A DNA stretch of 64,000 nt from Amphiscolops sp. MND2022 (lineage: Eukaryota), in the NCBI GenBank assembly GCA_964187785.1, contig OZ076409.1:49354001-49418000 (forward strand), written 5' to 3'. Made by a program: the position numbers and the translations under genes. The number at the start of each line of letters is the position of its first letter. Within the stretch, counting starts at the first letter, position 1. This document shows positions 19,730 through 60,947 of this stretch, piece by piece. Under the pieces are notes generated by a model. It saw nothing but the letters and a program-made list of their open reading frames with translations. It had not been told where the DNA came from and ran no database searches.

Positions 19730-19770
19730 TGGTATTTGGTCGGTTAAAATTGAATTTACGGATAAAAGTA

Positions 19771-19788: not shown

Positions 19789-20027
19789 TGTTGTTATCTC
19801 GGTCTATTACGGTAAAAAGGTTCTTTATCTAAGATGATAAATTAGTATCTTCTTCAGTAACTAATCTATGGTATCAATCTCAAGTACAATGGTCAATGAT
19901 CTATTGTACAACACAAAATGTAGTAAACTCAAATTGACAGTAATTAGAGTTTTATGTTTAACAACAATAGTATGCTCTCTGTCTAGGTTCGTAGTTTTGA
20001 AGGTCATGATATCTACATGATATCACA
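19789..20027 (-). repeat. 5' LTR of element 1
   Basis: Direct repeat of 14069-14307; abuts the PBS. Confidence 0.95.
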
Positions 20028-26561: not shown

Positions 26562-26751
26562 TGTTGAAGACTACTGAGAGGCAATGTACAAGAAGTAAAG
26601 AAGAGGAGATAACAATGTATTATGAACTGTATCTCGAAGTAAGGGCAACAGCAACTAAACATAGTGTTTTGCATTTCATTCTAGCATTTTCATGACAGGT
26701 GTTTGTAAATAATATCTTTAGCGTAACTGTTCTTTTTAGTACTCTGTCACA
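26562..26751 (-). repeat. 3' LTR of element 2
   Basis: Direct repeat of 31677-31866. Confidence 0.95.
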
Positions 26752-26910
26752 CTCCCCGTTTTAACATAACACTTGGGGTTTTTCGTTACATGTTAATAAA
26801 TGACATCAACGGTTAATGTTATTTTATTTCAGATTGCATGACTGTAAAGTAATGTAATATTGTGATAAAGTCAAGTGTGATGAATGTAATGTTTCTTCTG
26901 TTTCAGAGTT

Positions 26911-29900: not shown

Positions 29901-31677
29901 CTCCTTCTTTTCCATCGATTTTTTCTGCAATCATGTCCATTAGATTTTCTAAATTCGGCATTTGGTACTTATCTTTTGCAATTGAGTTATTTAGCGCTCT
30001 TGCGTCTAATGCTATTTTTACTGAGCGATCTTTCTTTACTGTTATAACTACCGGCTGTAAGAAAACGTCGTCCTTTATCGTATTCACTTTCTCAATATGT
30101 CCTTGTTCTAACAATTGTTTAATTTCTTTGTCTACTTGGTCTTGCAATTGTAGTGGTATTCTACGACCTTTCTGCTGAGTGACGCTCGTGCCGTCTTTCA
30201 TATCAATTTTAATCTTGTAGTTATTTACTCTACCGCGTCTCTTGAACAAATTAGGAAACTCTTCAACTAATTGATTTGCCTCCGGACTTAGCTTAATCTC
30301 AGGATTTGCACTTTCGCAGGAAATGCTATTTACAATATTCTCACCTCTTGTCATAGGCTGATCGATTTTGTATTTCAGAGCTGTGAGCCAATCACGGCCA
30401 ACAATCGATTTTGCTCCTTTCTTCGCAACGAGCACTCTCGCCTTCGACATCCTTGTTTTTCCCACCTGAATGCTGACAAACATGTAACCTAGCAGGGGTA
30501 GAGGACGTCTGTTAAAATCTACATATCGTTCATCATCAATTATCTCTCTGACGACTACCCAATATTTTCCAATGATGCGTTCCAGTTCATCTATTGCGAA
30601 GATAGACACCGGTGAAGCGGTATCAATGATAGCCTGGAATTTCTTCCCGCACATCAGGCCTTCCATCATGAATGGTTTTGCTCCTTCGCCGATCACTTGC
30701 AGAACCATTTCGTCGTCATCCCATTCTTCTGAATCTTCGGATATGTAGTTTATTCTTGCCATTCCTCTCCGTCTGCTCTGAAGTCTCTGCTTCATCTGCT
30801 TTCTTCTTTCTGGGTATTTCTGGTTACAGCATTTTTCGAGGTGGCCGGTGATGTCACAAAATTCACATTTGTGATTGGTGGCCGGGTATTTCTTTATATG
30901 ATCTGTTGTGAAGTTCCCCACCCCACAACGAAAGCATTACCTTTTATTGACCTTTTCCACAGCGCATACCGGTTCGGTCTTGATTGCCGTCTTTGAACTT
31001 TCTGTCACTCCTATCCCCATGGTCTTTTGTCTCTTTACACCTTCTTCGTAGGAGATGGCATACTTCAGGGCATCTTGGGGGTCGTCGAAGGGTTCTACGC
31101 ATAATTTTTCTTGGACTTTCTTGTTGTTCATATTTAAAATGAACACGTCGTGGACCAGCGTTTGCGTTATTTCACCCAGTTCACATCTTGATGCTAGTCC
31201 ATTGAGCGCATGCCAGAATTGTTGCAGGGATTCGTTATTTTGCTGTTTTCTGGACAGAAATTTATGTCGATCCAGAGTTCTATTGGGTGCCACGTGGAAG
31301 CAATTTCTGCATCTCTCGATCATGTCCCGGACTCCCAATGTCCAGACCGACAAATTCGGATGTTTGTCCTTGAACATCTTTCTGGCGGGTTCTCCCACCG
31401 AAAGGAAAAGCCAAGTTACGACTTTTTTCTCCGCCGCTTCTTCTGCCATATCCCCGATAAGTGCTTTTATCCTGGGACTGTTCGCATCCGTGGTTCTGGT
31501 CAACTCCTCAATAGAGATTGAATATTTTGCCATGACTGCTACAGCAAACAAGTCGAACCATCGTTCCCATTCCATTAGCGGGGATCTTGTATTATCTGAC
31601 CAGAACAGTGGCAGACCGGGTAACAAAGAAGGGTTTTCTTTTTGTATTGACGCAGTAGAAGTTTCTCGCAGCGCCAT
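26911..31677 (-). pseudogene. Single-frame gag-pol of element 2 interrupted by two in-frame stops
   Basis: ORFs 30937..31677, 29221..30921 and 26911..29172 share one frame. Motifs: CFRC and CEFCDITGHLEKC knuckles, IDTAS protease, YIDD RT, CDAS RNase H, HHCC and DDE integrase. Stops at 30937-30939 and 29221-29223. Confidence 0.9.
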
Positions 31678-31866
31678 GTTGAAGACTACTGAGAGGCAAT
31701 GTACAAGAAGTAAAGAAGAGGAGATAACAATGTATTATGAACTGTATCTCGAAGTAAGGGCAACAGCAACTAAACATAGTGTTTTGCATTTCATTCTAGC
31801 ATTTTCATGACAGGTGTTTGTAAATAATATCTTTAGCGTAACTGTTCTTTTTAGTACTCTGTCACA
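31677..31866 (-). repeat. 5' LTR of element 2
   Basis: Direct repeat of 26562-26751; abuts the PBS. Confidence 0.95.
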
Positions 31867-33609: not shown

Positions 33610-34294
33610 TGCGGCTTCATGAATATTCATAAAGTTTATAAACTAGTTAGTTAGAATTTTGTTAGATCTATGCTTAGTTACTTCTATTTTTTCCATCATG
33701 CTGGCATGACAATGACTCCCTAGGGTTCCTACAGACGGGCAAGGTCTGGTTAAATATCAAATCAACATTTACAATCCCTGGAAAATCCCGGAGATGCGTT
33801 GAAAAGCATTTGAGCAGAATTTTAACAAAAAACAGTCTAGACGCAAATGGGTAGCAACATCAGGACATTCATAATCATATGAAGCTTGACGTCTATGAAA
33901 CTCAAAACTTTTTGTTACTAAACCAGAAACTCAATTTTTTTTTCAGAAAAAGCAGACTCTTAAAGTGGCAAGTTTTTCTTCTAGTCACCCTGTAAAATCC
34001 ACTTTTAGTAATTTTTGAATACGTCATAAATTTGATTTCAAATTGATATGGGGCCACGTTTTGGTCCAGGGGTTAACTCGGATTTCCAGACATGGTCACG
34101 GGGTGTGAGAACTAGTAGGACGTAGGTTGGAGTTTCGCGGTGAACCAATTTTTCATGCTTGCAAATGTAGTGACTGTAAAGGGTTGCTCCTCTGGATTTT
34201 TCGGTGCTAAGCGACACGTTTCGAAGTTTTTTTTTCCACCTTAGGACTTTTTAGCACAATGCGACTCACCAAAGACAATTGTTGAAAAAGTCTT

Positions 34295-36621
34295 TGTCAC
34301 AGCCCGCTCCCGGTCTGGCTTGTGGTTGCAGACGGCTGAAGATTGGGAGAGGACACGGAGGTAATCTGAGATTCCCCAAATCTTATTTTAACTGGTAACT
34401 CTAAAACTTTATCCTTGAAATAAACTGTGACTAGAAATGCGAAAGCACAACTAAACTGCGCAAATTTCAACTGGAAATGAAAACAGAGAACAAAATGAAC
34501 CAAAATGATTTCACGCATTTCCGGCAAGACGCGTTTGTCACGTCAAAATAGCAACATTCGCCACCTGGAAACTAAATTGAATTACATTCTAAAACAAAGA
34601 AAGCATGGTCTAATCTAAATGAAAACGTAGTCAAAATCATCTTCCAAAAGAACATTAATCAGATCTAAAATAGAAAATACACCGAGATGACACACCGATT
34701 TGGTTTAAGCCCTTTTCTTAGAAAGGCAGCTTAATTACTCTTTGAACAGCAATTAAAATGATTTAGGACGTCAATACTGCGCTGAGTAAACAAAGCGGCA
34801 AAAGAAATAAGAATACATGTATATTTGTCGTCAGTAGGACGCAGACAAGTTTGAAGGCATACCAATTGACGTCACTGCCTCGCATACGCGTACCAGCAAA
34901 TCATTCCAATTATCCGCCTATACTAATAACATTGCTAGGAATCATTCCAATTTACCGCCACTGTGACGTCACTGCGCCGGCAGCTAGCGAGAGATTCATT
35001 TCTGAAATACTCGTCAGCATTGCGTCAAACTAGTCAAAATCTCTACTCTGCCAAGAAAACTCGTCAACATGACGTTGACAAGTTTATGAAATTGAATAAA
35101 GTGAATGAATTTGCTGAATTTAGTCAAGTTTTCATCGCGCAAATGCCGTTATTTCCTAAGGAGAGAAAATTGCAGACTGTTGCAAAGTGTATAACGAAAG
35201 CATTGTTGATTTTCCATGGTTTAAGGTCCCAATTTAGAATGCGTTTTGGCACATATAGGATAATTTCAACCCCACGTTAAGTAACAATCATGTATTCTTA
35301 ACGATAAAGGAATTTCCGCGCATAAACCATCTTATTACAAGATCTCACAGTAGATTAATTAGGAAGTCACAGTTTATTCTCTCCAACTAAAAGCATATTG
35401 TGTACCAGAAATGTATTTCTCATATATTTTGCATTTTTGTACTCTACAACATTGAACGCTGTACTTCTGATTGTGATCATGTTTTTCCATTATAGTACCT
35501 CCGTTGCTGTCCAGGTATTTACCTTGTGTTAGTGCTGTTATTTAACAAACGTTGTTGTTAATTTTGTAAATCTTGTCGTGTTTGACACGACATGACAAAG
35601 TTGCTAACAAAGTATTATTTTCATATCATGATTTCATTCCCATCTCTAGCAAAAGATTGAGTCCAAATTCATAAAATATCGTCCTAGCATCGTTCAAATA
35701 TTCCTATTTTGGAATTAGTCATATCATTTTTATCAAAGCGAAATTCAAAATCAGGTATTTGTTGTTCACGTCAGCGTCATCTCAGCGTCATCTTCCCGCA
35801 AACCAAAGCAGTAAAACAGGGAAGCATTTCCGGTTTGACAGACTGAAGTAATATCTACTTCCTGCTTGGGAGGAAGCAAAAGGACGCCGGGATGAAATGA
35901 TATGATCATGTTTGATGACTAATACTAGTTTAAAATTGTCGTGTCTTAAAAATCGACGAAATGTCAGCGCAAATTTGGGAACTTTGTGATTTTTTCATCG
36001 ATAAAACAGGAAATGACTAATTGTTCGAAGGAAATTAGGGATTATGGTCGTGATCAAATGATGCTGGGAGGGTATAAATGTGATAGGATTTGATGATTAA
36101 GGGACTCAGTCTTTTGCAATTGTACAATTCAGTTGAATTTTCAATTTCACTCTCGCCTTTTTCTACTTTGTCAGAAAAATCTTTGAAAGAAATTCAATTC
36201 TTCAAGATCAAACTTTTCTACAAAATGTCAACAACAAGAAGCCAAAAAAGAAGGAACGATCAGCAAAGCACCAGTGAGAACGTAAGTGAAGGCTTGATTT
36301 CACCCATAGTAGTAGGAAATCCTTGTTCTTTGAATCAGGACGATGAAGTAGCGGGGCCTTCTAGACCAAAATCCCCCCGGATTGAGAATAGTCTCTTTGA
36401 AAGCTTGAGAACTTCCTTAAAGGAGGAAATAACGTCAGAGATTAAGAATCTTGTTATTGAATCCCAGAAGGAGATGTTGAAACTCCTTAAACCTGAAACA
36501 AGAGGGATTATTAGAGAAAATACCGAGGAAGAGGTAGAGGAGGAAACTAGAAGTTTCTATACTCCTACAAAATCAGTGAGAATAAGTTCTACTCAAAACG
36601 ATCCGATAGCATGTCGTAACA
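34295..36621 (+). repeat. 5' LTR of element 3 (2,327 bp)
   Basis: tgtcacagcccg...tgtcgtaaca; roughly 99% identical to 48034-50360 by eye. Confidence 0.95.
36073..36111 (+). promoter_or_regulatory. Putative LTR core promoter (TATAAA plus Inr-like TCAGTC)
   Basis: TATAAA at 36073 and TCAGTC at 36106, upstream of the gag ATG at 36225. The sister LTR retains a TATATA and gggactcagtcttt. Confidence 0.5.
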
Positions 36622-37664
36622 TGGTGACAGGAGTCCTAACCGATTCCACAAACCAGCCAAAAAGAACAAAGGCCAGGTCTCAGAGCCAACCGCCGTCAAA
36701 AGAACGTCCAGTAGTGGCAAGGACTTTATTTGCAACAGATAAAAATGATAGCACTACTCTGCCCATGCCAAAAGCACTCACGGCGTCACTCCCAACCTTC
36801 GATGGGAAGTCGGAAAATTTCGAGCTTTTCGAAGACCTTTTTCGCAATAATATCAAAATGTATCCACACCTTACGGAAATCCAAAAACTAAACTATTTCC
36901 ACTCCCTGCTCAGAGGAGATGCTTTACAAGCATTTTGTAATATCGAAGATACGAAAAAGGATTCCCTTGATGAGATCATGACGATTTTCAAACGACGTTT
37001 CGGAGATTATTTGTACATGGCCAAGGGAAGATGCGAATGGGATGAGCTCAAACTCGACCCCTCGAACCAGAAACTCCACGAATTTCTGGATGTACTTCAA
37101 AAAACCGCCAAAGAAGCCTTCGGCTCTGAAGCCCAACAATTTATTGATAAGGCGATCTATGCAAAAATGCCAGACCATGTAAAGAAAATAATAAATAGAG
37201 CGTACCTTGAAGACAAACCCTACAACGACATCGTACTGCATCTAGAAAGGGAAATGAGACTTAACGGCCTCGGGGCGCCAGATGAAGTAAACCTGGTACC
37301 ACTTAACAAAGTAGAACCGGCCCCACCAAACACTGAGTCCAAACAGGCCGACAACACGACGCAAAACACCAAGAAAGGGTATTGCTTCTACTGCAACAAA
37401 TTCGGACACTACAAAGCGGAGTGTAGGAAAATGAAAAGAGATAAATGGATGCAAACCAAGAGAAACAATGGCCAAACCAGCAGCAGTTCAGGCAAACCAC
37501 TTAAATGCGACACGTGCGGAAAACCCCACAAAACAGAAAATTGTTGGAATGGAGCCAATGCTGCCAACGATCCGCGTCCCAAGCGCCGCACTACACAGGA
37601 ACAAAAAAGGGACACCCCAGACCAGATGACAACAACCGACTTTGCCACCGAACCAAAAAACTAA
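36225..37664 (+). CDS. gag: Gag of element 3, starting inside the LTR
   Basis: aaaATG at 36225 (the same start is used in the sister ORF 53139..53558); LPTFDGK capsid-like region; knuckles CFYCNKFGHYKAEC and CDTCGKPHKTENC. An alternative in-frame ATG lies at 36621. Confidence 0.85.
   Translation: MSTTRSQKRRNDQQSTSENVSEGLISPIVVGNPCSLNQDDEVAGPSRPKSPRIENSLFESLRTSLKEEITSEIKNLVIESQKEMLKLLKPETRGIIRENTEEEVEEETRSFYTPTKSVRISSTQNDPIACRNMVTGVLTDSTNQPKRTKARSQSQPPSKERPVVARTLFATDKNDSTTLPMPKALTASLPTFDGKSENFELFEDLFRNNIKMYPHLTEIQKLNYFHSLLRGDALQAFCNIEDTKKDSLDEIMTIFKRRFGDYLYMAKGRCEWDELKLDPSNQKLHEFLDVLQKTAKEAFGSEAQQFIDKAIYAKMPDHVKKIINRAYLEDKPYNDIVLHLEREMRLNGLGAPDEVNLVPLNKVEPAPPNTESKQADNTTQNTKKGYCFYCNKFGHYKAECRKMKRDKWMQTKRNNGQTSSSSGKPLKCDTCGKPHKTENCWNGANAANDPRPKRRTTQEQKRDTPDQMTTTDFATEPKN
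36622..36636 (+). other. Primer-binding site of element 3 (TGGTGACAGGAGT; tRNA-Leu-like)
   Basis: TGG directly after the LTR terminal CA. The tRNA identity is inferred. Confidence 0.7.
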
Positions 37665-37712
37665 TTACGCCGAGCCTGCGTTTTGGGGAGAAAGTAGACG
37701 CGAGGGCGTATT
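37655..37712 (+). promoter_or_regulatory. -1 programmed ribosomal frameshift signal (A AAA AAC plus downstream stem-loop)
   Basis: Slippery heptamer at 37655-37661, in gag phase just before the gag stop; pol is in the -1 frame. TACGCC (37666) can pair with GGCGTA (37705), with an inner tgcgttt/agacgcg stem. Confidence 0.8.
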
Positions 37713-40700
37713 CAACCGAGGATCCCCCCACCACATACGTTAACAACACAACGATTGAATGCAATGACACACCAACTGAAGACTGGCTAAGACGACAAGC
37801 ACTCGCTTCTATAAAAAGGCCATATCCACAAACTGAACAAGCAGAAACCTACACTCACGATAAAGACTACAGGGACAATCCTAAACAACAAGCAAATCGT
37901 CCTACCAACTTACCCCTCATCAACAGAGAACTCTCCGCTACAAACCAGGTAGAACAAAATGAAAGCGCCTCCGACGACCGCCTATCGTCAAAACAAAATG
38001 AAGGAGATAATCACGACTCCACCAAGACTTTTCTGTCCCCAGACGATTTCCCCACATCACTCAACTCAATCAAGGAGTACGTAGCCGAAAAGGATGGAGA
38101 AACATATATACCTCTCCACTCCACTATATTCCTCAAGAGCAGAAGGAGAATGCTGTACTTGCCACTAGAATTCGGTGAAATAACAATGGATGGACTTGTC
38201 GACTCAGGTGCGTTCATCAATGCCATGTCCTGGTCAGACTACAACGCAATCAAAATGAATAGTGATAGTTGTGTCATAAAAGAATATCCTCAACCTCCCT
38301 TCAAAATCGAATGCGCAAACGCACAACTAGAGCAACCAATAGCAACAGCGGACATCCAGTTCAACATCGGAACATATACCTTCACGGATACCTTCGTCAT
38401 CCTATCGAAAACGTCATTTCCCATCATAGGATTGAACTTCATGAGAAATCACCAAGCAGTAATTGACACTGCCAACGGGACCAATAATTTCCCACACGTC
38501 GAAATGACGCTAGCCATGACGGACGAGACGAAAAAATGCAACCCGAAACCGCTCCAAATAATGGCAGAAGGAAATCAAACCCTACCGCCCCAACAAACAA
38601 CAACAGTGAACGCAATAGTAATAACCACAAACATGCATGACGTCACTGGTGCGGTACAACCATTACCACAATTTGATGAAGCAGCAACAATCATTGTTGC
38701 ACCAGCACTAGCGACAGCCCACAACAAAAGGCTCAACATCCGAATCGCCAACTTAACGGATTTCCCTCATACAATAAAGAATCACACAAAACTGGCAGAA
38801 CTACAAATCCTCAAACCCGAGGACACGAAACAAATACGACCAGTAGACGCCGCTGCACTCAAATTGCTAGAAGATCCTGATGACACCCACATGTACATCA
38901 ATGAACTCATGAAAGCCAAAAAAACTGAACAAGGTGAGGAAAATTTCTGGTTTCCCACACCTGAGAACCCGGGAAACGAAGAAGAACATACGCCAATCCA
39001 ACGACGGATCCTGAAGGAAATCCGTGAACTAATCCAGAGAGAAGAGTTAGACCCAACCAAAGACCAGGATTCAAGACAAAAGTTCCTTGACATGTTTCAG
39101 TGGGAAGGTTCTCAAATCGAAGGCAACGACAGAAAGCAACTCGAGCAAACAATAGTCGAATACAACGATATCTTTGCCCGCCATCGCCTTGATATTGGAA
39201 TCAACAATAGCTTCAAAGTCAAATTAACTCCGAAAGACGAGCGCCCAATTTACACGCAAAGCCTGCCGGTACCAATCAACCTGAAAGAAGATCTAACAGT
39301 TGAATAAGCACTAACGCATAGGTACGGCATAATAACGACCCTACCATTCTCAAAATATGCAAGCCCAATCTTCGCACAACGCAAACCGAATGGCAACTTG
39401 CGACTACTCGTCGATCTACGAAAAATAAACGCATTAATCTCAGACGACTACATCAACAATAACCACCCAGTCAGCACCCTGTCAGATGCAGCTCAACATC
39501 TAGCTGGGAAAAAATTGTTTTGCAAACTAGACTGCTCACAGGCATATCATTGCCTACAGATGGCAGACCAACGATCAATCGAAATGCTAGCCTTCAACTT
39601 TGCAAGCAGAACGTTCGCCTACAAACGCCTAGCACAAGGACTGAGCAGAGCCCTGTCGGCATTTTCAAGCTTCATGCGAGAATACTTGGATAAAGTAATC
39701 AAGGCCGACCAATGCGCGCAGTACGTGGACGACATCGGAATTGCGGCCAACTCTGTGACACAACTGATACGCAACATTCGAGCAGTTTTTGAATGCATCC
39801 GAAGAGCGGGACTCAAGCTAACCATCGAAAAATGCCATGCCATTTCGGGGTAACTGAAGTCGAATTCCTTGGAAGAACGATCACACCACAAGGAATCGCC
39901 CCGCAGGATCATAAAATTCAAAAATTCCTAGCAAATGTGAGATTTCCAAAATCCAAGAAACAAGTACAAAGATACATCGGTTTTGTCAATTATTATCGCA
40001 ACTACATCCCGAGACTGTCTGAGAAATTGCTCGGATTCTATGAACTACTGAAAGCAGACAAGCAAATCAAAATCACAGAAGAACTACTCGACCATTACAA
40101 AGCCATGAACGCAGCACTGGCGCAAGCTTGCGGTTTGGCACTCAAACAACCAATCACAGGACGACAGTACGTCCTGATGACGGACGCCAGCTTCCGAGCC
40201 TCTGGCTACGCACTAATGATTGAGGAAGACAACGACAAAAAACTCAATTCAAAAAAGAAGACATTTGCACCAGTCGCATTCGGATCAAAGGTGTTTTCCC
40301 CGGCTCAAATCAAAATGTCAATTTACTGCAAGGAATTTCTAGCAATCTATCACGCCTTCCTTGAATACAGCCATATTCTATGGGAAACAACCCTACCAAC
40401 TCTTGTGATGACCGACAACAGATCGGTAACGCGTTTCTTCCAAACAAAAGCAATCCCGCCTACTCTGTGGAATGCATGTGATTATGTACTACAATTCAAC
40501 TTCCACATAATGCACGTCGCGGGTACGCAAAACACGGCAGCCGATTTTCTGTCAAGAATTGATCTCAATCCCAAAGAAAGAGTTGAACTAAAAATCAGAG
40601 AGGATATTACAATCAGGCCCATCCAAGTGAATCTCCAATCAACGGACGTCGCGGATGAGGAACAACTTTTCTTCCTTCCGGATGAAACAATTGAAACGGA

Positions 40701-42597
40701 AGAAGAAATCCTATTGCAGAAAGAACAAACTAGACAAAATGCGCGCGACGAGGAGACGACCAAAATCAAAATAGCCATCAAAGAAACCACCCCAATCCCA
40801 ATAAATAAGGCATCTTATACCTTTGGGGCAATAAAGGAAGACGCACGTATTAGAGTCGAGCAAGACTCGAATTTGGTTTTCAAAGCAATCAAAAAGAAAT
40901 TGATATGTGAAGAATACGACAAACACCTTCTACAGACCGATCCGACAGCCAAGCGCCTCCTACTCCACGAGAACAGACTAATAGTGAAAGATGGAGTACT
41001 AATGCGCAAATATTACGAGGAATGTGGCCAAGTCACTCACCATCAAATTTTAATCCCCGAACATTTAATCACAGAACTCTTGAAAGCAATTCATGGACAA
41101 ATGGGAAAGCATCCAGGAATCACAAAAATGATCCAAGAATGCCGATCAAAGTACTACTACCCAGGATTAGCAAAGAAGATCAGACAGTGGGTAATGCAAT
41201 GCGAAGAATGCATCAGATACAAACGAATCAACAACAGCCAAATCCGACCAAAGATGATCAACAATACGGAACACGTCCTAGGTCCAGACGATATCCTAGA
41301 AATTGACATATTGCCGAACTTACCAAACTCCGCGGGATATCAAAACATCGTCACGATGATTGATGTCTTTTCACGTTACCTATTTGCATATCCAACGCAG
41401 AATAGCACAGCAAAAACAATAGGACGATGTATTGTCGACGTCATGACAAGACACGCATACTTGCCAACATTAACCTTATCAGACAAAGGCTCACAATTCC
41501 GATCAGAAATCGTCGCAGAGATAACCCAGATACTTGAAATTCAAATCAGCCACGCATCTACGAAGCATGCACAAACAATCGGAATTCTGGAAAGAACGCA
41601 CGCTTCAATCAAAACCGCCCTAAAAACGGGCGAACGACGCTCAATGTGGCACAAATATGTCCAAATCGCAGTGATGAATTACAATACAACATACCATGAA
41701 ACTCTGGGCTGCGAACCATCTACAGTATTTCACGGACGTATACCTTACAACGTTCTCGATTTAAAACTGGGCATCAAGCCAAAGTGGAAAACCACCCCCC
41801 ATTCGGATGTAGCAGAACAACTCCAAAAACAAATTGACGAAGTGCGAGCGACGGCAAAGGACAACATCATGCTGTCCTATCTCAAATACAAAAAATACTA
41901 CGACCGCAAAGCAACCGGGGCTCCATTAAAAATCAACGACTACTGCTATATACTTAACCCGAAAGCCGACAATCAGTCGACAAAGTTTGCGTTTCAAGAT
42001 TGCATCTGGACAGGACCGTATGTAGTAATCAAAGTGCTTTCAAACAACAACTACACAATACGAAAAATTGGCACAAGATATACACAAACACTACACAGAA
42101 TTCGCATACGACCTTACGTGCCAGAACAACGCTTGCCCGACGTCACAGTACGAGCCAACGACTACCTTCCTGACCCAGAAGTTACAGTCTCACACAATGA
42201 ATGGTATGCGGTATCATGGGAAATGGATTTTGGAAAGCAGATTGATGAACACGAAACATCGGAAAGCACAAGAAACAATCACCACGTAGAAATACGAGAA
42301 GTGACAAATGCAAACGACGGCAACACAACGCCACAAGCGTCAAATGATAACAGCGAAGATACAAATGACGAGGCACCGCCGTCCCCGGATTTTTCAAATC
42401 TTACTACGGACGTGGGAGATAACCCATACATACGCCGTCCCCCACCCCTTGAAAGCCCACCCATTCCCCCAAGAACACCGCCTACAGTTGTCGGATATAA
42501 CCCGAGACAAACAGCAAAGTACAATTTGAGACCTAATCCTAAGCCTAATGCTAATCCTGACTTCAGACGACTTGACGCTATGACTACGACTCACTAA
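37655..42597 (+). pseudogene. pol: Pol of element 3 (PR, dUTPase-like linker, RT, RNase H, IN) with two lesions
   Basis: LVDSGA protease, YVDD, TDAS, HHCC, DDE and GPY motifs. In-frame TAA at 39305-39307 and a 5-nt duplication (tgcca) at ~39833-39842 that shifts the frame. Confidence 0.92.
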
Positions 42598-42818
42598 AAG
42601 AAAAGATCATATCTGGAGTCCAGCCCGAACCGGACTGACAATTTTCCAATTTACAAGCATACTACAGCCTGAATAAACGTCTTTTTTTTCTTTTTTATAT
42701 ACAACTCCTACAGTCTACAATTTCATGTGGCACATCATAAAGCTACAAAGAAAATAAACAAAAGATATCAACACAACAACAACTAATGAAATCCGAGTTT
42801 ACTGCAACAAAACTGAAG

Positions 42819-45800
42819 TCATTTCTTCTTCGAGCCAGACGTAGCTCCTTTACCCGCAGATTGCTTTGACTTCTTCTTAGACTTCTTCACATCGACTACA
42901 TCAGGATCAACAGCACCTTTTTCACGTCCCAACAAAGAGGCAACACTCCCATACACCTTGGTCTTGCTGAATCGAAAGGAACTGGATCCACTAGACGAAG
43001 GGACAGGTGGGGCAGAAATAACAGACGCAGCTGGACTTTCAATCAAGGAGGAACCTTCGCAATCACCACCACTCTCGCCATAGGGTTGACCATCACTGAG
43101 ACTCCTTTTCCGACTCACTCGTTCATCAAACAGACGACGATATCGATTGACGAAAGCAGATTGATTCACCCCACATAAACCGTCCCATGGATCAAACCCA
43201 CCAGACGACATAAAAGTACTGGCAGTAGCAATTGCTTTCCGCACTTCATTCATCGTAAACTGGGTAAAGAAGGACTTCAACCTAAACTCAGATGACACAA
43301 CGCAACTTTGAACACCTTGCACACAGGATGCAACCACGTGAGACGGAACAGCACAATCGCTGAGATCAATCTCCACAGCAGGAAAATCAATGCGAGGCCT
43401 CAATACTGCCAGACAACATAGTTTGAACACGCTACACAATGACTTGCGCGCCAGAAAGCAATAGTCGGACAAAAGATAATGCCTTACGTCACTGATTGAC
43501 TCAGCACTGACTCCACTATTGGCATGCCGAGACCGGGCATCCACAACCAAGTTTGAATACTCCTCCACGGCTGCTTTCGACTCTCGCGAAGAGACAACTC
43601 CACTCCGCTCCAATACTCGAATCAATGTCTGGAACAATACTAGCATATGTTGATCGTCCCCTTCGAGTAACAATTCAGGACAGAAACAGTAAACGCCCTG
43701 AGGAAGCTCTCCAGTAACGGGCTGCTGACCCAAAATGGCGATAACTAGGCGATCAATAAATTTAGGACAAAGATCCTGGAAGACGCGAAACTCTCCTCCT
43801 TTGTGACTACGCAACACAGCACCAAAATCATGGTTATGAAGGAAATCACAGGAAGCAACATTTTCGAATCCGTCCAATTTCTGTAGGTCCATGTAACCCT
43901 CCCACGAATTCAGACTCGGCAACGACCCAAGTTTACGACTTCGTGACAGAAGACAGTACACAAATTGGCAAATTTCCATGTAACCATGGAAACCATAATC
44001 ACTTCGCCCTGAAGACTGCTTCTTGAACGAACAGGAATCTGAAACACAAGACACACCATCATACTCGGCACTAGCCATTTTTTCCTCACCCCCACACAGT
44101 ACTACGCAAGAACATCACACAAATACCACTATCTCGCGAACTGCAAATACGATACACCACAACAGCATACTCACGAAGTTCAAGCACATGCAGAAAAAGA
44201 CCCAGGTGCAACCCTCCAGTAGCCTCAGAGTACACATGCCAGTCAGTGCAACGCATCTACAACAACAAATCGCCAACAGTCAACAACACCTATACCTGTG
44301 CGAACAACAATATACGAAACGATCAGCTACGCAAACAAGACAAAATCATTACCCGGCCAGCAGCAGTTTTGAAATGTCGGGGTCCAGTGTGTCTCACAAA
44401 ATCCTGAACAGACGACCACACTGAGATCAAGTCAGCAACTACACCTCGTAGATCAGCGAATTTGACATGCCCAGCAATGATGCATCGTCGGAGACACAAC
44501 GTACTCTCGCACCAGGGCTCTTGAATTGCACCCCGCAAGCGCAGCATCAAAAAGTCCACCATGGCAGTTGTTTCCAGTCCACCAAAAACCTCCTGATGCG
44601 CGAGCTGATAGCAATGCAAGAAGACGTCCACAGTGAATTCCCGATACATCAGAAACTCTCGCCCGTCAACGCGATTGTCACTTAGAATCCTCAGCAAGGT
44701 AGGACTACAGCCCTGACATGACAAAGGCATCTGGCATGACGCAGTGCTATCAATGACACGTGACAAACCAGCCAAGTCAGCCTCGGGAATGCGTTGCCCA
44801 GAAGCCTCAACCCTCACACAAATGCTCATCAGGGTATGCTCATCAAAGGTCTGCACGAAACACTTGTGGTACCCATCGCTCTCCATGAAAGAAACACTGT
44901 ACTCTCGGAAAGCGCCAATTCGAGCGAACAAGGAGCGCAACACACGAGGGAACAAAGCCTGGCAGATCAGCGACTAAAACACAAAAAATTTTTTTCCAAC
45001 ACATGAGGCCCGATACAAAGATGAGCCTGCGCACTCTACATACAACCCCCCCCCTCACGAATAACAAATACTAAACTGCCGGACATTTTGACTTACTAAC
45101 CAACGACTCAGGACGACTCCAGTGCACATTGTATAGTGGGTTCTCGGGACCCAGTGTCGCCCGGAAACACCCCCACAATCTTCGCAACAGAAGGTAACTG
45201 CCACCAAACCGCAACAGCTCGATCAGACAGTTCACCATTGACATCAGGGGCACACTGGAATCGGCTTGCACACAGGCAGGGAGCAAGTCCTCAGGAAAAC
45301 TAAACCCCTCATTTTTCCCTTTGTTAGGTCGATTGCGATATTCCTCCAGCTGAGCGTCACTGAGCACCATTGGGTCCATCAGACGATTAAATACCGGCAG
45401 ACCATTTTGAACACGATAGGTCACATCCAGCAACCAGTGCCGTTTTCCGAAGAAGTGACGACTGAACTCTGCTACCCCACGTGACTCCATGGACACGTCC
45501 CGCTGGCAAATCATGCAGTGAAACATCTTAGCAGAACCAGTGCTGGAACCACTGACAAAGAGCTCATATATCGGATTGCCAGTGACCATATCGCGACGAA
45601 GACGATTCCGAGGGCTGTACACTCGCTTACGACCACGATCGGCACTCTCCAAGGTCGTCTCCATACGGCTGATTAGCTCCTCAAACCCTGTAACAACCAA
45701 ACTCTGGCATCATGAAACTCAATTAGAAGACGTACGCCACCCGGAAGAGGAAAAAAAAGAAAAAAAGGAAAAAGAGAAAAACAGGGAAAAGAAGGAAAAA

Positions 45801-46944
45801 GATGCCTAACATCTATCAACAGACGAAAAGAATATCAAAATAACTCCACCAATCCAACTGAACTTACGTGCAACGAACGGATCCAAGGCATGTCCTTCTA
45901 CGTCGGAAAGTCCTCCAGACGACACCCCGACTTGCTGTGCGGGTGTAAGAGGCAGCACACCACTAATGCCCTGCTCATCGTCACTGTCGTCCACACGGAA
46001 CCGAATTATGGGAGCGCCAAACTGGAAAACAGTCTCAGCAGGCTGTTCTGACGCTGATCGCATCTCTGACCCGCTCCCGTCGGGAATCATCAATTGCACT
46101 ACAACAAGTTAGTTACAGTTAAGACATAATACCTCCTCACATAACAAAGCGACAAGAGAAGGACATAACCTCAGAAACACGCCAATGGCAATTGACCTAC
46201 ATGAGAATACACAAATATCATATAAATATCAAAGCAACAATACGACAACTCACCACGTTTGACTTTGGTCCCTCCGTCGCCAGAACTTCCTTCTGTTCTC
46301 TTTCGACGAAGAAACGATGAGAATCGAGGAGAAACAGTTTTCTGCCCTTCAGCATTTCTCTGAGCAGGGGGGGATAACCCCTCACCTCCGCGAGAGTCCA
46401 TCTTGTCGACCGCGTTGGCCACCTTAGCAAGAGCCGCCAGAGGAACGTCTGAATCTTCAGAACAACACGTAGGAATGACCGAAGCAGCGGGAGGAGAAAC
46501 CTCAGTCACTATCTCACCACCCCCATGTGTTGACTCTGCGAGAGGCTCGAGACTAATTCCAGAGAGGTCACCAGGGAGAGAAGCCCTCAACTCAGCGACA
46601 GAACCACCAGCCAGAGGAGGTGAAGGAGTCGGATCTAGCAACAAACAAAACAATCCCGTGTTGACGCGTCAGAAAATCTAAGCTGTGAAAATACCATAAA
46701 CCAGAAGAGGCCTATCTGTCACAAGTGTTATTCACAAAAGCTTAATGGACCGGGGAAGAATAAGCTCACCTGTTGCTTGCCGACGAATGACATCCCCATC
46801 ACGCTGGTAGATGTCCCCCTCAGAGAAAACAAACTGAGTTTCATTACCACTCTGAGCTCCGGTATCACGCTGAAGGGAAGGAGGATTCTGATCCAAAAAA
46901 AAACAGCTGGGATCTGAAAAAACAGCCGAAATTGACGTCGGCAT
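42819..46944 (-). CDS. Spliced antisense accessory gene of element 3, ~1,098 aa: BED-like zinc finger plus hAT-transposase-like body and Lys-rich tail
   Basis: Predicted exons 46944-46770, 46634-46254, 46098-45868, 45687-45101, 44973-44353, 44256-44175 and 44038-42819. All six introns are GT-AG and join into one stop-free 3,297-nt frame. The same junctions and phases occur in the sister copy. The start codon is uncertain. Confidence 0.8.
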
Positions 46945-47190
46945 AACGTCGACAAAAAGGTTACCTGGGTTAAGAAATTAATCCGATACCCTAAAATGGC
47001 GTCATAAAAACGGTGACAAAATCAAAAGTTAGCTAAGCTAGCGAAATTGACGTCGGCATAACGTCGACAAAAAGGTTATCTGGGTTAAGAAATTAATCCG
47101 ATATCCTAAAATGACGTCATCAAAACGGTGACAAAATCAAAAGTTAGCTAAAGCTAACGAAAATGACGTCAGCATAACGTTGACAAACTT
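46927..47190. repeat. ~115-bp tandem repeat (x2.3) rich in GACGTC/CRE-like sites
   Basis: Units start at 46927, 47042 and 47158 (cgaaattgacgtcggcataacgtcgacaaa...). Confidence 0.85.
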
Positions 47191-47414
47191 GGCTAAACGG
47201 ATTAATTCAATTTGCAGCCAATAGAAAACGACGTTGGCACTGCGTCAACACCTAAAGATTAAAAAGGATTAAAACGATCGATTAACCAATCAGAATGGAG
47301 GGATTTTATCCCAATATTCTCCTTAATCCTAATTAATCCCAAATTCATTGTGGAACAATCAAAGGAGAAATTCAGCAACCCTACAACTCACGACTCGACA
47401 ACGGCAGAGCAAAA
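46945..47414. promoter_or_regulatory. Putative internal bidirectional promoter
   Basis: Lies between two divergent ORFs; contains the tandem repeats and CCAAT boxes (agccaatag ~47216, aaccaatcag ~47285); strongly conserved in the sister at ~56274-56745. Confidence 0.5.
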
Positions 47415-48137
47415 ATGAACTCTCTCAAAAACGTATACGAGCTAATCGACATTTCGTCCAGCGAAGATGAAAGTGAACCTGTGGAGAGATCGTCGACCCC
47501 TCTTCACAGAGAGACGCTGCCTAACTATAGAGTAATACTAAAAAATTCCCTCTCCTCTGCAGAAGCCGTGGCTGATGAAGAAGAATATTTCGACGTGTCA
47601 GCAGACTCGCTTGAAGCAAGCTACAAAAGGATAAGACTGAATTCAAGTCTGTCCTCCATTGACTCTAGCTCCTACCCTCAACGAGAAGGGAATGCAGTAA
47701 CACAAGCAGGTGAAGAAATCCCGGACAGTCCTGAAAGCCCGGACGAAAGCATGTCGTCGGATGTGTTCATCGTGGAGGAAGCCATTGGCAACGAGCCATC
47801 ATTCTCGGGCAGCAAAGTCATGGAATACCTCGAAAAGGTACACCAAGAAGATTCATCATCATACTTTGTCACGCCACCAGGAACTCTCAGAAAGATAAAT
47901 TTCACTCACGCGAGCCCATTAAACGATCTCGAAGCGGAACGCAGCTTTAACGGCTCGGAAGAAACTGAGATGAGACCACCACCACTTACGTTTTTGCCAA
48001 GACAACCAGGTGTTTTCCCCAGAGGAGCGGCCCTGTCACAGCCCGCTCCCGGTCTGGCTTGTGGTTGCAGACGGCTGAAGATTGGGAGAGGACACGGAGG
48101 TAATCTGAGATTCCCCAAATCTTATTTTAACTGGTAA
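47415..48137 (+). CDS. 240-aa acidic, Ser-rich accessory protein with SUMO-interacting-motif-like N-terminus, overlapping the PPT and 3' LTR
   Basis: Intact in both copies (sister 55563..56273, 236 aa). The first 20 codons differ by 8 synonymous and 0 non-synonymous codons. Confidence 0.85.
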   Translation: MNSLKNVYELIDISSSEDESEPVERSSTPLHRETLPNYRVILKNSLSSAEAVADEEEYFDVSADSLEASYKRIRLNSSLSSIDSSSYPQREGNAVTQAGEEIPDSPESPDESMSSDVFIVEEAIGNEPSFSGSKVMEYLEKVHQEDSSSYFVTPPGTLRKINFTHASPLNDLEAERSFNGSEETEMRPPPLTFLPRQPGVFPRGAALSQPAPGLACGCRRLKIGRGHGGNLRFPKSYFNW

Positions 48138-50360
48138 CTCTAAAACTTTATCCTTGAAATAAACTGTGACTAGAAATGCGAAAGCACAACTAAACTGCGC
48201 AAATGTCAACTGGAAATGAAAACAGAGAACAAAATGAACCAAAATGATTTCACGCATTTCCGGCAAGACGCGTTTGTCACGTCAAAATAGCAACATTCGC
48301 CACCTGGAAACTAAATTGAATTACATTCTAAAACAAAGAAAGCATGGTCTAATCTAAATGAAAACGTAGTCAAAATCATCTTCCAAAAGAACATTAATCA
48401 GATCTAAAATAGAAAATACACCGAGATGACACACCGATTTGGTTTAAGCCCTTTTCTTAGAAAGGCAGCTTATATACTCTTTGAACAGCAATTAAAATGA
48501 TTTAGGACGTCAATACTGCGCTGAGTAAACAAAGCGGCAAAAGAAATAAGAATACATGTATATTTGTCGTCAGTAGGACGCAGACAAGTTTGAAGGCATA
48601 CCAATTGACGTCACTGCCTAGCATACGCGTACCAGCAAATCATTCCAATTATCCGCCTATACTAATAACATTGCTAGGAATCATTCCAATTTACCGCCAC
48701 TGTGACGTCACTGCGCCGGCAGCTAGCGAGAGATTCATTTCTAAAATACTCGTCAGCATTGCGTCAAACTAGTCAAAATCTCTACTCTGCCAAGAAAACT
48801 CGTCAACATGACGTTGACAAGTTTATGAAATTGAATAAAGTGAATGAATTTGCTGAATTTAGTCAAGTTTTCATCGCGCAAATGCCGTTATTTCCTAAGG
48901 AGAGAAAATTGCAGACTGTTGCAAATTGTATAACGAAAGCATTGTTGATTTTCCATGGTTTAAGGTCCCAATTTAGAATGCGTTTTGGCACATATAGGAT
49001 AATTTCAACCCCACGTTAAGTAACAATCATGTATTCTTAACGATAAAGGAATTTCCGCGCATAAACCATCTTATTACAAGATCTCACAGTAGATTAATTA
49101 GGAAGTCACAGTTTATTCTCTCCAGCTAAAAGCATATTGTGTACCAGAAATGTATTTCTCATATATTTTGCACTTTTGTACTCTACAACATTGAACGGTG
49201 TACTTGTGATTGTGATCATGTTTTTCCATATTAGTACCTCCGTTGCTGTCCAGTTATTTACGTTGTGTTGGTACTGTTATTTAACAAACGTTGTTGTTAA
49301 TTTTGTAAATCTTGTCGTGTTTGACACGACATGACAAAGTTGCTAACAAAGTATTATTTTCATATCATGATTTCATTCCCATCTCTGGCAAAAGATTGAG
49401 TCCAAATTCATAAAATATCGTCCTAGCATCGTTCAAATATTCCTATTTTGGAATTAGTCATAGCATTTTTATCAAAGCGAAATTCAAAATCAGGTATTTG
49501 TTGTTCACGTCAGCGTCATCTCAGCGTCAATTTCCCGCGAACCAAAGCAGTAAAACAGGGAAGCATTTCCGGTTTGACAGACTGAAGTAATATCTACTTC
49601 CTGCTTGGGAGGAAGCAAAAGGACGCCGGGATGAAATGATATGATCATGTTTGATGACTAATACTAGTTTAAAATTGTCGTGTCTTAAAAATCGACGAAA
49701 TGTCAGCGCAAATTTGGGAACTTCGTGATTTTTTCATCGATAAAACAGGAAATGACTAATTGTTCGAAGGAAATTAGGGATTATGGTCGTGATCAAATGA
49801 TGCTGGGAGGGTATAAATATGATAGGATTTGATGATTAAGGGACTCAGTCTTTTGCAATTGTACAATTCAGTTGAATTTTCAATTTCACTCTCGCCTTGT
49901 TCTACTTTGTCAGAAAAATCTTTGAAAGAAATTCAATTCTTCAAGATCAAACTTTTCTACAAAATGTCAACAACAAGAAGCCAAAAAAGAAGGAACGATC
50001 AGCAAAGCACCAGTGAGAACGTAAGTGAAGGCTTGATTTCACCCATAGTAGTAGGAAAACCTTGTTCTTTGAATCAGGACGATGAAGTAGCGGGGCCTTC
50101 TAGACCAAAATCCCCCCGGATTGAGAATAGTCTCTTTGAAAGCTTGAGAACTTCCTTAAAGGAGGAAATAACGTCAGAGATTAAGAATCTTCTTATTGAA
50201 TCCCAGAAGGAGATGTTGAAACTCCTTAAACCTGAAACAAGAGGGATTATTAGAGAAAATACCGAGGAAGAGGTAGAGGAGGAAACTAGAAGTTTCTATA
50301 CTCCTACAAAATCAGTGAGAATAAGTTCTACTCAAAACGATCCGATAGCATGTCGTAACA
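48034..50360 (+). repeat. 3' LTR of element 3
   Basis: Direct repeat of 34295-36621; preceded by an atypical PPT, AGAGGAGCGGCCC (48021-48033). Confidence 0.95.
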
Positions 50361-50989
50361 GTCTTCGATATATTATCCCACAATTTTCGTTTTTTGAGAA
50401 GTTTCCGGTTCAAGAAAACCGTTTTCCGAGTTTCTAGGGTGATCTCTGAATTTTAATCACTTGGGGCTGATGAGAATTTAGCCATTAACAGTTCAAAAGT
50501 ACTGCAGTTGTTTTTTAGCACTGTGTAACTTTCGAAACAATTCACGGTAAAGCGATACGCGCTTCACTTTGAAAAAAGCTTTCATCTGATATTACCCGTT
50601 TTGCAAACTTGAAAGGTCTCCATTTGGGTTACTGGCTTTACAGGTTTTCGAAAGAAAAATTGAATGGTTTTTTTGAAATGTGTTCTTAGATAATTTGAGT
50701 TAGGTAAAAGCGGTTTTCGGGTCTCATGTATTTTAGGCACGGAAACTTCGTTGAAAGATTCGAAATATTTTTATTTTGCGTAGTTGAAACGCTTTATTCC
50801 GTTTGAGCTTCGAGCAGGTCGCCAAATTGTGCCATTGCCGGCTTCTCAAATTACCGACCAATAAGTCTCTTGAGTTCAATAGGGAAGATCTTCGTGAAAC
50901 GTTTGCACAAATATATGGTCAAATGTTGCACAAAAGAGAACATTATAACACATATTCAATATGGTTTCAGCAAGAAATGATCATGCATT

Positions 50990-56748: not shown

Positions 56749-59700
56749 TTGTTGTCTTCATTTCAGGCTCCGTTTCAGATTTCTTGCTTTGAAAAGGCTT
56801 CGTCTGGACGTGTTGACTCTGGGATGCAGAGCGGCAATGACACTCAGTATTTGTTTTCGGAGGGAGACATCCATGAAAGTGACGCCGATGTTTTGACCGT
56901 CCCTTCTGTTGCTGGCAAGTTCACAATTCCCTGATCCATTAGGCTTTTGTGAATTATAATTTGCAAGTTGGCCTTTTTGCATTTTGTATTTTCACAGCTT
57001 AGATTTTCTTGTCGCGACGATAATGGGAATGTGTTTTAGTGACTGGCCCAAGACCTTCCATTGTGATTAGTGAACTTCCTGATCCTCCCCCTGTTGTTTC
57101 CGAGACCGTTGTGGTTTCTTCTGAACTTCTTGACCTTGGTGCCGCTGCGGCTACATCTGCAGTTGATGCTCCTTTTCTTCCTTCGTCTCAGGACGATTTG
57201 GATGCGCCTCTTTCAACACTCTTGAGCAAGTCAAAAGAGTGTACAGTTGGTCTTACTCACGGAGGTGAGGACGTCCGCCCCCCGCAGGAAAAACAGGTGC
57301 TAGCCGAAAATGTGGGTGATTTGGGAGTGGCTTAATTTCTGTCTCCTCTTTTCACTCGGTTCCTGCCCGCTTTTGCTGATACGTTCAGTAAGCTGGAGTC
57401 TTCACGGGTAGCTGTTCAGTGTAAGTGTTTTGTATTGTATTTTATAGCGTATCCATTTCACCTGGTTTTTCATTTTGTTGGTTGGTTTTTTGCATAGACT
57501 GTTGTTTCATACGTGATGGAAGTTATCCGGTTTGTTGGCATGAACTGGGAATTTTGCGTTTGTGTTTATAGATCCATCACCGAAGACTGCTGGTCCTAGT
57601 GGTAAGCGACGTCGTACCGTCACTCTGTCGACAGTTGCTCAATCTCAGACCTTCCATGAGGAGAGTAGTGGCGGATAAGAGACATCTGGCAGAATTGGAG
57701 CGTGCACTTCGCAGCAAGCAGCGTTGTTTGGCGAAGCGGTGGCGTCTGAGTTGGAAACCCGTACAGTGGAGCCCTTCGTTGCCAGTTAGATTGATTTCGT
57801 TGTTTCCTATGGTGTTTAATTGTCGTAGAGGATCCTTTGAGGGTGTTATAGTATTGGATTATTTAGGGGTGGGATTAGGTTGTGAGTCGGGTCTTTCATG
57901 TCGTTGATTAGCTGTTTTGTTGTTTGTTGCAGAGTTCGAGGAGTTGGTGACACGTGTGGAGGCGAGTCTTGAACAGGCTAGTCCTTCTCGACGACGATCT
58001 CAGCCTATTAGTCCGCGGAAACGACTCCGCTGCAGTATGGTCAAGGACCACCCCGTGTTCGAGCTATTCGTCAGTGGGTCGAGCTCTGGGATTGACAGCG
58101 CGTTCTTTTGCACACTCTGTCAACGGGACGTCTCTATTGCGGCCAAGGGTGTGCGAGAACTTACCCGACATTTTGCGAGTGACAAACACTGGCTTCTTGA
58201 CGTCACTTATCGTGTCCACCAAGGTTTGCAGGTGTACAATAAACTTCTAGATCCGATGGAGCTGAGCGAGTCCCAAACTCAAGAGTACCTTTCTCGTCCG
58301 TGTAAGGAGAAACCGGAGGGCTTCAGTTTTCCTGAAGATTTGTTGCCGTCCTGTACGCGCGTGGACTCGAGTGTGCTAGTGATGACAATGGTGAACTGCC
58401 TGATAGAGATGCTTCGGAGTGGTGGCGACTACCTCTTTTTGCGAAAACTGTGGGGCCATTTCCGAGCAACATTGGCTTCAGAAAACCCCCTCTACAATTT
58501 GACATGGAGTCGCGGAGAGTCTTTGGTAAGGCACTTTTGTGTTTTTTCATTCCTTCTTTTTTTTGCTGGTGGCATTTATTAATAGTTGTCTGGTTGCTAG
58601 TGGGGCATGTCATGTCGTATTCTCGGGTGTTGAGTATTGCCTTGTTTCAGTCGTTACTGTGCCAGGGTTTGTTCCCACGAGTTCTGTGTTTGCTGGTAGC
58701 CCGCATTGGTGAGTTCAGATGTTACAGCATTAGTTTCATGGATCGAGTTGATGGAAAGCACTGTTTGGTGCGGACCTGAGAGGCAAACAGGTCTCTGGAA
58801 GTGTGTGTTGACGTTCAACCTCTTGGCCAAAACGTCCCCCAAGCGGAGCTGAGGTCACTGTCTTGCGTCCTTAGTAGCGTTCCTGGTGGTCGGTTGCCTT
58901 TGTCGATAGAAGGGGCTAGTCCTTCTTTGCTGCGTGTGATTAGCGACAACCGGGATGATGGTCACCGCTTCATTCTTAGTCGTCATTTCTCCGAAGAAGT
59001 ATTCATTAACTGTTATCGGCAAGCTCATCAAGAGGTGTTGCGCATGATGGAAGTCACCTCTATGCTAGATTACCTGATGTTACGCTTGAGAGGGGCTCTG
59101 CAGGAGCCTTGGTTGGAAGATACTTTGGTGTTTCGTCGCTGCATCGTCGCTGGCCGGGTGTCTTTCTGTGATCTTCGGGAAATTGCTGCTGAACTGGTTC
59201 CAGTGTGGAAGTCCGTGAGGGAATTTGTCCGTTACACTGGGCCCGACAGATTAAACTGAGACCGATATGGTTGGTATCATAGATAATGCGTTTACTCCTT
59301 CCTTTCTAGCCTGTTTTATTTTCGTTTGGGTGGGGAGTGTTGTTTGAACGGGAAGTAAAGGAGCGGGAAAAAAGAAAAAGTCAGCTTTTATTGTCTGTGT
59401 ATTGTGTATTTTAGATGCGAGGTACGGACAGTCAAGTGTATTGTGACAATACGAACCAGTTGCGGCTGGGGCTCTTGATCCATGTGTTAGATCTCTGTAA
59501 GTGGTCGTCGTCTTGTCGTCGTAAGTGAGTCATTTTGGATTGGTATGATTTGCATTTGTTGTTTAGATCGCTGTACTTTCAAAAAGCAGTTATCCGGGCG
59601 AGTGGATTACGGTTTCCATTGTTATATGGAGATTTGCCAATTTGTTTACTGTCTCTTGTCGCGGACTCGTGAGTTGACCGATTTGCCTGAGCTAAACGAT

Positions 59701-60768: not shown

Positions 60769-60947
60769 AAGCACAATTGAAAACGTAAACTTTATTATAG
60801 TATGTTTTATTGTTTCGTCTGTGATTTGTTGTCAGTTTGTTTCGTTGAAAACAGAGAGTTAGATGAAGTAGAAGGGTCATAGTATGCCTGTAATTAGAAA
60901 TTGTCAGATCGGTTCGGTCTGGACTCTGAGTATTGTCTTTCCTCTTT

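Follow-up and report, generated by a model that had tools for sequence, protein, structure and literature searches.

An antisense accessory gene of a Ty3/Gypsy retrotransposon lineage with a predicted hAT transposase origin and lost catalytic residues

Antisense accessory genes are known in LTR retrotransposons, and the accessible text of PMC7264820 treats their origin and role as open questions. In plant Gypsy elements (Retand TRP28/PF04195, Grande gene 23, and RIRE2) and in fungal Boty, such ORFs lie between pol and the 3' LTR. For the Retand/Grande type, an own promoter and a nuclear regulatory role have been proposed in the accessible parts of PMC7264820 and PMC11963269. The former describes the origin of plant antisense accessory ORFs as unknown and similarity to other transposable elements as lacking. 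Accessory genes have likewise been captured by bdelloid LTR retrotransposons, whose ORF3s (GDSL, DEDDy) have intact catalytic residues and are common to several retroelements, unlike the very probably dead antisense transposase described below (PMC5408684, accessible text). The word "transposase" is absent from the main text of PMC5408684, and the accessible text of PMC13524379 mentions neither antisense ORFs nor transposases. Listings of the accessible literature, which did not extend to subscription journals or Repbase, showed no LTR element reported to carry a gene derived from a hAT.

In this study, we analysed a window of 64,000 nucleotides (the whole stretch of DNA under study; Table 1) and searched genome G000 (1.07 Gb, 1929 contigs) for relatives of the antisense gene that it holds. 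The stretch 42819-45687 is the core of this multi-exon gene, which lies between the integrase and the 3' LTR of a Ty3/Gypsy element. The gene has the position, orientation, and family-wide conservation of the plant and fungal ORFs, and its placement and conservation are those of the aORF-3R (Retand/Grande) type. It differs from Retand/Grande-type ORFs in its origin, predicted to be a recognisable class II transposase, in its protein length (about 800-1050 aa in the family), and in being spliced in three of four clades. Here the origin appears traceable to a DNA-transposon enzyme that lost its activity and has been retained by a retrotransposon lineage across four deep clades, which would be molecular domestication between mobile elements and not by the host. 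The gene is also like VANC of VANDAL transposons in being an element-encoded accessory gene, in adjoining a repeat-rich non-coding region, and in the hint of protein/target co-evolution (PMC5735166, accessible text). VANC is encoded by a DNA transposon, and its action is on DNA methylation; the likeness is a functional analogy only, and homology is not expected (PMC5735166 and PMC12859917, accessible text).

Table 1. Features of the window discussed in the text
Feature	Coordinates	Strand	Description
Ty3/Gypsy element	34295-50360	+	LTRs, TG...CA ends, TSD, gag-pol order
5' LTR	34295-36621	+	2327 bp, TG...CA; 98.9% identity with 48034-50360
gag and pro-RT-RNase H-integrase	36087-42597	+	ORFs, Pfam matches
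Last exon	42819-44038	-	Helical insertion domain, C-terminal part, Ser-rich linker, Lys-rich tail
82-nt exon	44175-44256	-	27 codons + 1 base; AG...GT flanks; peptide conserved between copies; phases fit neighbours
RNase H-like core exon	44353-44973	-	Met, Gln, and Lys-Phe at catalytic columns
Finger exon	45101-45687	-	C-x2-C-x16-H-x5-H C2H2 finger and helices preceding the catalytic domain
Predicted upstream exon	45868-46098	-	231 nt, acidic, low complexity; GT-AG, phase 1 to 1, open frame
Predicted upstream exon	46254-46634	-	381 nt, Ser/Pro/acidic; GT-AG, phase 1 to 1, open frame
115-bp repeats	46927-47310		TGACGT motifs and CCAAT boxes; between antisense gene and sense ORF
Second accessory (sense) ORF	47415-48137	+	240 aa, acidic; C-terminal end within 3' LTR
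3' LTR	48034-50360	+	98.9% identity with 34295-36621
Second element of family	53180 to past window edge	-	Carries second antisense-gene copy
Second antisense-gene copy	57933-60770	+	Broken, other finger type; stops and frame changes in three exons

The window element has the TG..CA LTRs, short TSD, gag, and PR-RT-RH-IN order of Ty3/Gypsy elements. The 5-bp TSD is GTCTT (34290-34294 and 50361-50365), and the Pfam matches of gag and pol are DUF1759, Asp_protease, RVT_1, RT_RNaseH, Integrase_H2C2, and rve. In this copy, pol is interrupted by an in-frame stop near 39307 and changes frame near 39800-39850. The LTR (36228-36621 and 49967-50360) contains the first ~131 codons of the gag reading frame, and an in-frame ATG is formed by the last A of the LTR and the TG of the primer-binding site. 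The LTR-PBS junction of the family has 3306 exact occurrences in the genome (control, 0). The sense ORF is present in 20 of 20 clade-I loci at 43-90% aa identity and had no match in a Pfam search. Its Cys/His end falls inside the 3' LTR, and it contains ELIDISSSEDE and VFIVEE, which we take to be SIM-like stretches. ORFs that begin with a motif of this kind occur in clade II, and the sense ORF is exchanged independently of the antisense gene.

The coordinates 42819 and 45687 coincide exactly with the stop codon and the acceptor of the finger exon. The core comprises four exons, one of them the 82-nt exon that the original prediction did not mention, and at least two further exons are predicted upstream. 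The phases of the four core exons are mutually compatible. Copies with up to 50% protein divergence keep the signals of the first three junctions, well beyond chance: acceptor AG of the finger exon in 30/30, donor GT in 26/28, and the next acceptor AG in 31/31. The donor of the RNase H-core exon at 44353 was set by conservation among copies. A natural intronless clade encodes single ORFs of 820-920 aa (including P0034 and P0167-P0193) that read straight across the predicted junctions, and these copies confirm the exon order without RNA. Similarity to the two upstream exons is seen in some copies, and the start codon would lie upstream of the predicted exon 46254-46634. Clade III (L063-L074) is without the three core introns. 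Since clades IV and I have in common at least the intron that precedes the RNase H exon, intron loss in clade III, and not primitive absence, would be the simpler reading. Reverse transcription of the element's own genomic RNA, however, cannot remove antisense introns.

The motifs on which the hAT origin had first been proposed are all present in minus-strand frames at their place: YSVSFMES (Met codon 44884-44886), LISVWSSVQDFV, YCFCPELL, and LCSVFKLCCL. The finger, with its codons at 45517, 45508, 45457, and 45439, is conserved as claimed (Cys, Cys, His, and His kept in 65/68, 66/68, 68/76, and 70/78 alignment rows). Of the quoted sequences, FRNRCREFMDRLV is that of the second copy (59491-60012); the copy at 42819-45687 (hereafter the window copy) has FQDLCPKFIDRLV at that place. 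The Lys-rich tail contains 10 K/R among the last 32 residues. Pfam searches of 15 window proteins and of 21 full-length relatives gave nothing meaningful for the antisense frames or their relatives, no zf-BED match for the finger, and no match to TRP28 (PF04195). Because no Pfam family matches, the antisense gene would escape repeat annotation.

The fold was predicted by AF2 for a natural intronless relative (L064:3527-5872; 148-row alignment), which stands for the window protein at 25-38% identity to the window exons (E down to 1e-32). The model had a pLDDT of 85.6 and a pTM of 0.73. In Foldseek, the 11 best rows listed were all Hermes (best E 4.2e-4). VIA aligned 399 residues with Hermes (Z 14.1, rmsd 5.2; model 184-679 with Hermes 136-609). 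Against 48,161 chains, Hermes scored Z 13.1 and the next chain 6.5, the runners-up including ISCth4, Tn5, and RAG1; overall, Hermes reached Z 13-14 and the next scores were 6.5-6.7. The AlphaFold and Foldseek check suggested with the original prediction returned Hermes as the best match when run on this relative. The model has an RNase H-like core with a large helical insertion domain, as in Hermes, over ~400 aligned residues; the finger falls outside the aligned range. Neighbours in the ESM Atlas were hAT-type clusters (best 0.94), with 165 shared features, fewer than the 170 typical of same-family matches. Their families include ZBED, FAM200/GTF2IRD2, and DAYSLEEPER, host genes domesticated from hAT transposases. 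In those genes a transposase has likewise been reused apart from transposition; here the domesticating party would be another mobile element with thousands of copies, not the host.

True hATs of the genome were located by a hAT motif (12 matches; control, 2). The loci L084, L089, L090, L091, and L094-L124 hold decayed true hAT families of a Pfam-poor MDGPNVN type, with many internally deleted derivatives. The closest relatives of the antisense protein found were these MDGPNVN-type hATs. The group with FDE, MDGPNVN, CGLH, RWLEN, and VESGFS motifs (L084, L089, L090, L094-L124) shows profile similarity in the C-terminal half. Among about 440 ORFs, the family profile matched C-terminal ORFs of a true hAT (29.9 bits), and HHalign against a true hAT of the same genome gave 89% (E 2.2e-6, 164 columns). 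For the N-terminal half, HHalign gave probabilities of 2-12% against the decayed hATs and placed the second Asp region unlike the strand order of the model. The finger matched the finger of the genome's hAT weakly (E 0.0025-0.005), and the Ac-type hAT ORFs (L031-L042, L055-L062) reached E 0.13 at best against the family profile. Identity to the genome's hATs is about 20%.

Other searches returned less. A word-based search with the RNase H exon, restricted to longer proteins, yielded 0 of 970 candidates; the last exon alone had no usable match in the ESM Atlas; and PDB sequence searches with four profiles found no transposase. A tobamovirus-type capsid reached E 5e-5 in the PDB sequence search through a chain in which two stretches matched, whereas single chains scored E 0.11 or worse; it was dismissed as chance because the fold search gave it no support. 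A model of the RNase H exon alone (pLDDT 51.8) gave weak Foldseek rows, mostly RNase H-like, and only helical noise in the wide search. A DUF4371 search of the genome matched nothing, controls included, and none of 177 pattern matches in a metagenome scan was a relative of the antisense protein. The Hermes-like predicted fold, the ESM Atlas neighbours, and the profile match to a true hAT support the proposed hAT origin, and we regard hAT fold and hAT origin as a strong prediction. The protein is like hAT transposases (Hermes, PDB 4D1Q/8EDG) in domain order, in predicted fold over ~400 residues, and in its N-terminal C2H2 finger. It differs from them in being without both Asp, the Arg-Trp pair, and the CxxH motif, in having no TIRs, and in being mobile only within an LTR retrotransposon. 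Predicted fold and descent make the protein a hAT transposase; its catalytic residues and the structure of the element do not.

Hermes requires D180, D248, R318, W319, and E572 (PMC6027215, accessible text). We inspected the corresponding columns of the antisense protein in an alignment of related, non-independent rows. HHalign pairs YSVSFMES with FTLSFDEA of a true hAT at low probability. The Met that had been read as replacing the first Asp is indeed present in both copies; it is incidental, however, in that the column varies (E, Q, R, V, K...), with Met in 2 and Asp in 0 of 87 rows. The second Asp column has Asp in 1 of 99 rows, and the window copy has Gln (44713-44715) at the end of strand 4. 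No conserved Asp occurs in the columns neighbouring either position, and the four clade IV exons that were read likewise lack Asp where strand 1 ends. Of 93 rows at the Arg-Trp place, 1 has Arg, 0 have Trp, and 70 have Phe, and the window copy has Lys-Phe (44458-44463). The second-Asp and Arg-Trp placements were made from secondary structure and motif spacing and not by residue-level superposition; the Arg-Trp columns, 14-15 residues before a conserved downstream Trp as in Hermes, were placed by eye. The alternative offered by HHalign, an upstream conserved Trp, is likewise without a preceding Arg.

The third catalytic position is still acidic in most rows. LAVLRPRIDFPAVE of the window copy aligns gap-free with LIVLKLGHGNAQVE of a true hAT, and the column contains E in 14, D in 25, and another residue or a gap in 12 of 51 rows. 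The original prediction was right that no ERxFS is visible (ESGFS is absent too), but the aligned column is D or E in 39/51 rows and Glu in the window copy (PAVE, codon 43371-43373). The L064 model has no helix at 638-658, which is presumably the place where Hermes has the helix carrying E572. The loss of the two Asp and the Arg-Trp pair is family-wide, in line with the proposed inactivation. The enzyme is very likely dead and very likely was so before the clades split, and hAT origin together with loss of catalysis is, in our judgement, highly probable.

The finger exon gave 6691 first-look candidates in the genome. In 40 of 40 ten-kb loci fetched by the gene (two sets of 20), the gene was antisense and 3' of the integrase, and no copy outside an LTR element was found among them. 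Because these loci had been fetched by the gene itself, a gene-independent sample was taken from every fifth of the first 100 listed LTR-PBS junctions (20 loci). Four of these had no integrase in the stretch and one had the integrase on the other strand, which left 15 usable loci. The antisense gene or a piece of it was present in 13 of the 15 (11 by profile, plus L148 and a fragment in L145 by tblastn); L141 (rearranged) and L147 had none by profile or tblastn. Four clades carry the gene, with integrase identities to the window of ~80-96%, 71-75%, 46-56%, and 42-45%. The deep order ((I,II),III),IV is the same in the integrase and RNase H-exon trees, clade III being unresolved in the exon tree. 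Relatives that reach no more than 35-59% identity with anything scored in this genome (P0121 and P0130) suggest that the gene has other hosts.

Values of dN/dS for the antisense exons were mostly 0.03-0.16 in unsaturated pairs (integrase, mostly 0.03-0.05) and 0.03-0.10 for the finger exon (unsaturated pairs, dS above 0.05); many other pairs were saturated. Very close pairs (dS about 0.01) gave 0.4-1.1, where post-insertion mutations are expected. In this large Ty3/Gypsy lineage, the antisense gene is a fixed accessory gene under purifying selection; with this stable residence, the claim that a retrotransposon had kept the protein stands. The ancestor of the four clades may have captured a hAT transposase gene once, with inactivation following before they split.

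The gene might instead be an ordinary hAT transposon, nested or still active, or a passenger in decay, which would agree with the Glu at the third catalytic position of the window copy and with the stops found in many copies. We find this reading hardly credible, given the same place and orientation in four clades, the family-wide loss of both Asp, a dN/dS far below 1, and the 40 ten-kb loci without a copy outside the element. Moreover, no convincing TIR pair surrounds the gene in 42300-48100, where the inverted repeats are short, imperfect, or simple T/A tracts; no 8-bp TSD was seen at the gene, the sole TSD being the 5-bp one of the LTR element. Two outcomes named beforehand as contrary to a domesticated hAT, the lack of a fold match and an intact DDE with flanking TIRs, were sought, and neither was seen.

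Three fetched elements of clades II and III have LTR pairs 99.2-100% identical and 5-bp TSDs; therefore, the lineage has moved recently. This recent activity and the abundance of the lineage (3306 junctions) speak against the antisense protein being a self-limiting repressor or exclusion factor that controls copy number or suppresses competing elements, including hATs. Such a factor would have the same DNA-binding anatomy, antisense transcripts can silence through dsRNA (PMC7264820, accessible text), and the related true hATs of the genome are fragmentary. The identity to these hATs (~20%) is too low for likely hetero-oligomers, and we give this explanation little credence. As a separate observation, near-identical elements form a tandem array with a 13,639-bp period (G000:C10:2574315, 2587954, and 2601593), and similar spacings occur on C149 and other contigs.

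The finger exon is the most conserved part of the antisense protein: of the 21 columns conserved at 90% or more, 13 fall within the first 194 residues, which comprise the finger and the helices that follow. In Hermes, the N-terminal zinc finger binds short subterminal repeats and has no part in catalysis (PMC10368747, accessible text). In 20 clade-I loci, the repeat region 46927-47310 is 82-95% identical at the nucleotide level, exceeding the adjacent coding DNA, and is a candidate bidirectional promoter and a candidate binding site.

The three large exons co-vary with each other (Spearman 0.60-0.79) and only loosely with the integrase, promoter, sense ORF, and LTR (0.03-0.45), as measured in 18 loci after 4 of 22 with incomplete or rearranged segments were left out. 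This tight co-variation among exons and the loose tie to the rest of the element indicate that the gene is exchanged as a cassette. The cassette swapping, together with protein evolution several times faster than that of the integrase (branch lengths, dN), is what would be expected in a conflict with the host. It could mean that the protein acts against host silencing by contacting proteins or RNA (e.g. piRNA, chromatin repressors) and does not read the element's DNA sequence; the adjoining acidic ORF, with its presumed SIM-like motifs, likewise points to a host-directed accessory module. However, the part that is most conserved is a zinc finger, diverged pairs have a dN/dS far below 1, and the matching of finger and LTR types described below is left unexplained. 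We judge silencing countered in this manner to be rather improbable.

Two finger types were compared in 58 clade-I loci (30 of type MExRG and 28 of type xAxKG; 4 of 62 left out). Of 699 same-type pairs whose finger exons are divergent, 123 and 199 had LTR segments less than 10% apart, against 0 of 840 cross-type pairs. Promoters less than 10% apart were found in 58/699 same-type and 0/840 cross-type pairs. The sense ORF, which lies between promoter and LTR, crosses finger types in 46 and 36 of 840. If linkage alone were at work, the LTR would be at least as mixed as the sense ORF; the contrast of 0/840 with the crossing of the sense ORF favours a finger matched to LTR and promoter. The sample is non-random, the loci are related, and the ORF swaps across types may represent few events. 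Label shuffling gave P 0.0002 for the type/LTR matching, in a shuffle that ignores relatedness, and the sense ORF was also more type-sorted than shuffled labels (P 0.02). The overall correlation between finger-exon and LTR distances was 0.40, LTRs being swapped freely within a finger type, and no clean type-specific LTR motif emerged from the 58 loci. Taken as sequence patterns, these results hint at lock-and-key binding, in which the finger would be matched to LTR and promoter sequences. The two natural finger types, each with its matching LTR type, form an internal control of specificity for binding and reporter assays.

The type/LTR matching suits the binding of element ends as well as promoter binding. 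The dead transposase could act in integration, by binding cDNA ends or by tethering the integration complex to chosen chromatin, and the entire DNA-end-binding scaffold is kept under purifying selection. Against this, the protein does not co-vary with the integrase, as integrases 3-6% apart in DNA accompany antisense proteins of both finger types, and the promoter, being internal and hence no end of the element, is type-matched as well. A role in integration is thus possible but unlikely.

Our preferred reading, to which we give slightly better than an even chance, is that the antisense protein is a sequence-specific DNA-binding regulator, probably positive, of the element's own promoter and LTR. 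The matching of finger type with promoter and LTR type lends one piece of indirect support to the proposed role as a nuclear DNA-binding transactivator or VANC-like anti-silencing factor; it would suit activation and repression alike. The gene would be transcribed from the repeat-rich promoter as a spliced antisense mRNA; because the gene is antisense to the element, its introns would be kept in the genomic RNA. The protein would be imported into the nucleus via its basic tail, the finger would recognise short motifs with the dead core as a scaffold, and the effect on element expression would be positive, through activation or anti-silencing. Purifying selection also acts on the whole 500-residue dead core, a constraint that a simple finger-plus-activation-tail model would not require. 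More tentatively, and with somewhat less than even confidence, we suggest that a hAT was turned by a Gypsy lineage of >3,000 copies into a sequence-specific anti-silencing/transactivating factor, whose finger and LTR form matched lock-and-key pairs that constrain the surviving recombinants.

Elsewhere in the window, two smaller LTR elements (14069-20027 and 26562-31866) have 239- and 190-bp LTRs, respectively, with LTR pairs 99-100% identical and long minus-strand ORFs. An inverted pair of 16-bp tandem repeat arrays of the CATTTCACCCC type, MITE- or foldback-like, is present at 21070-21810.
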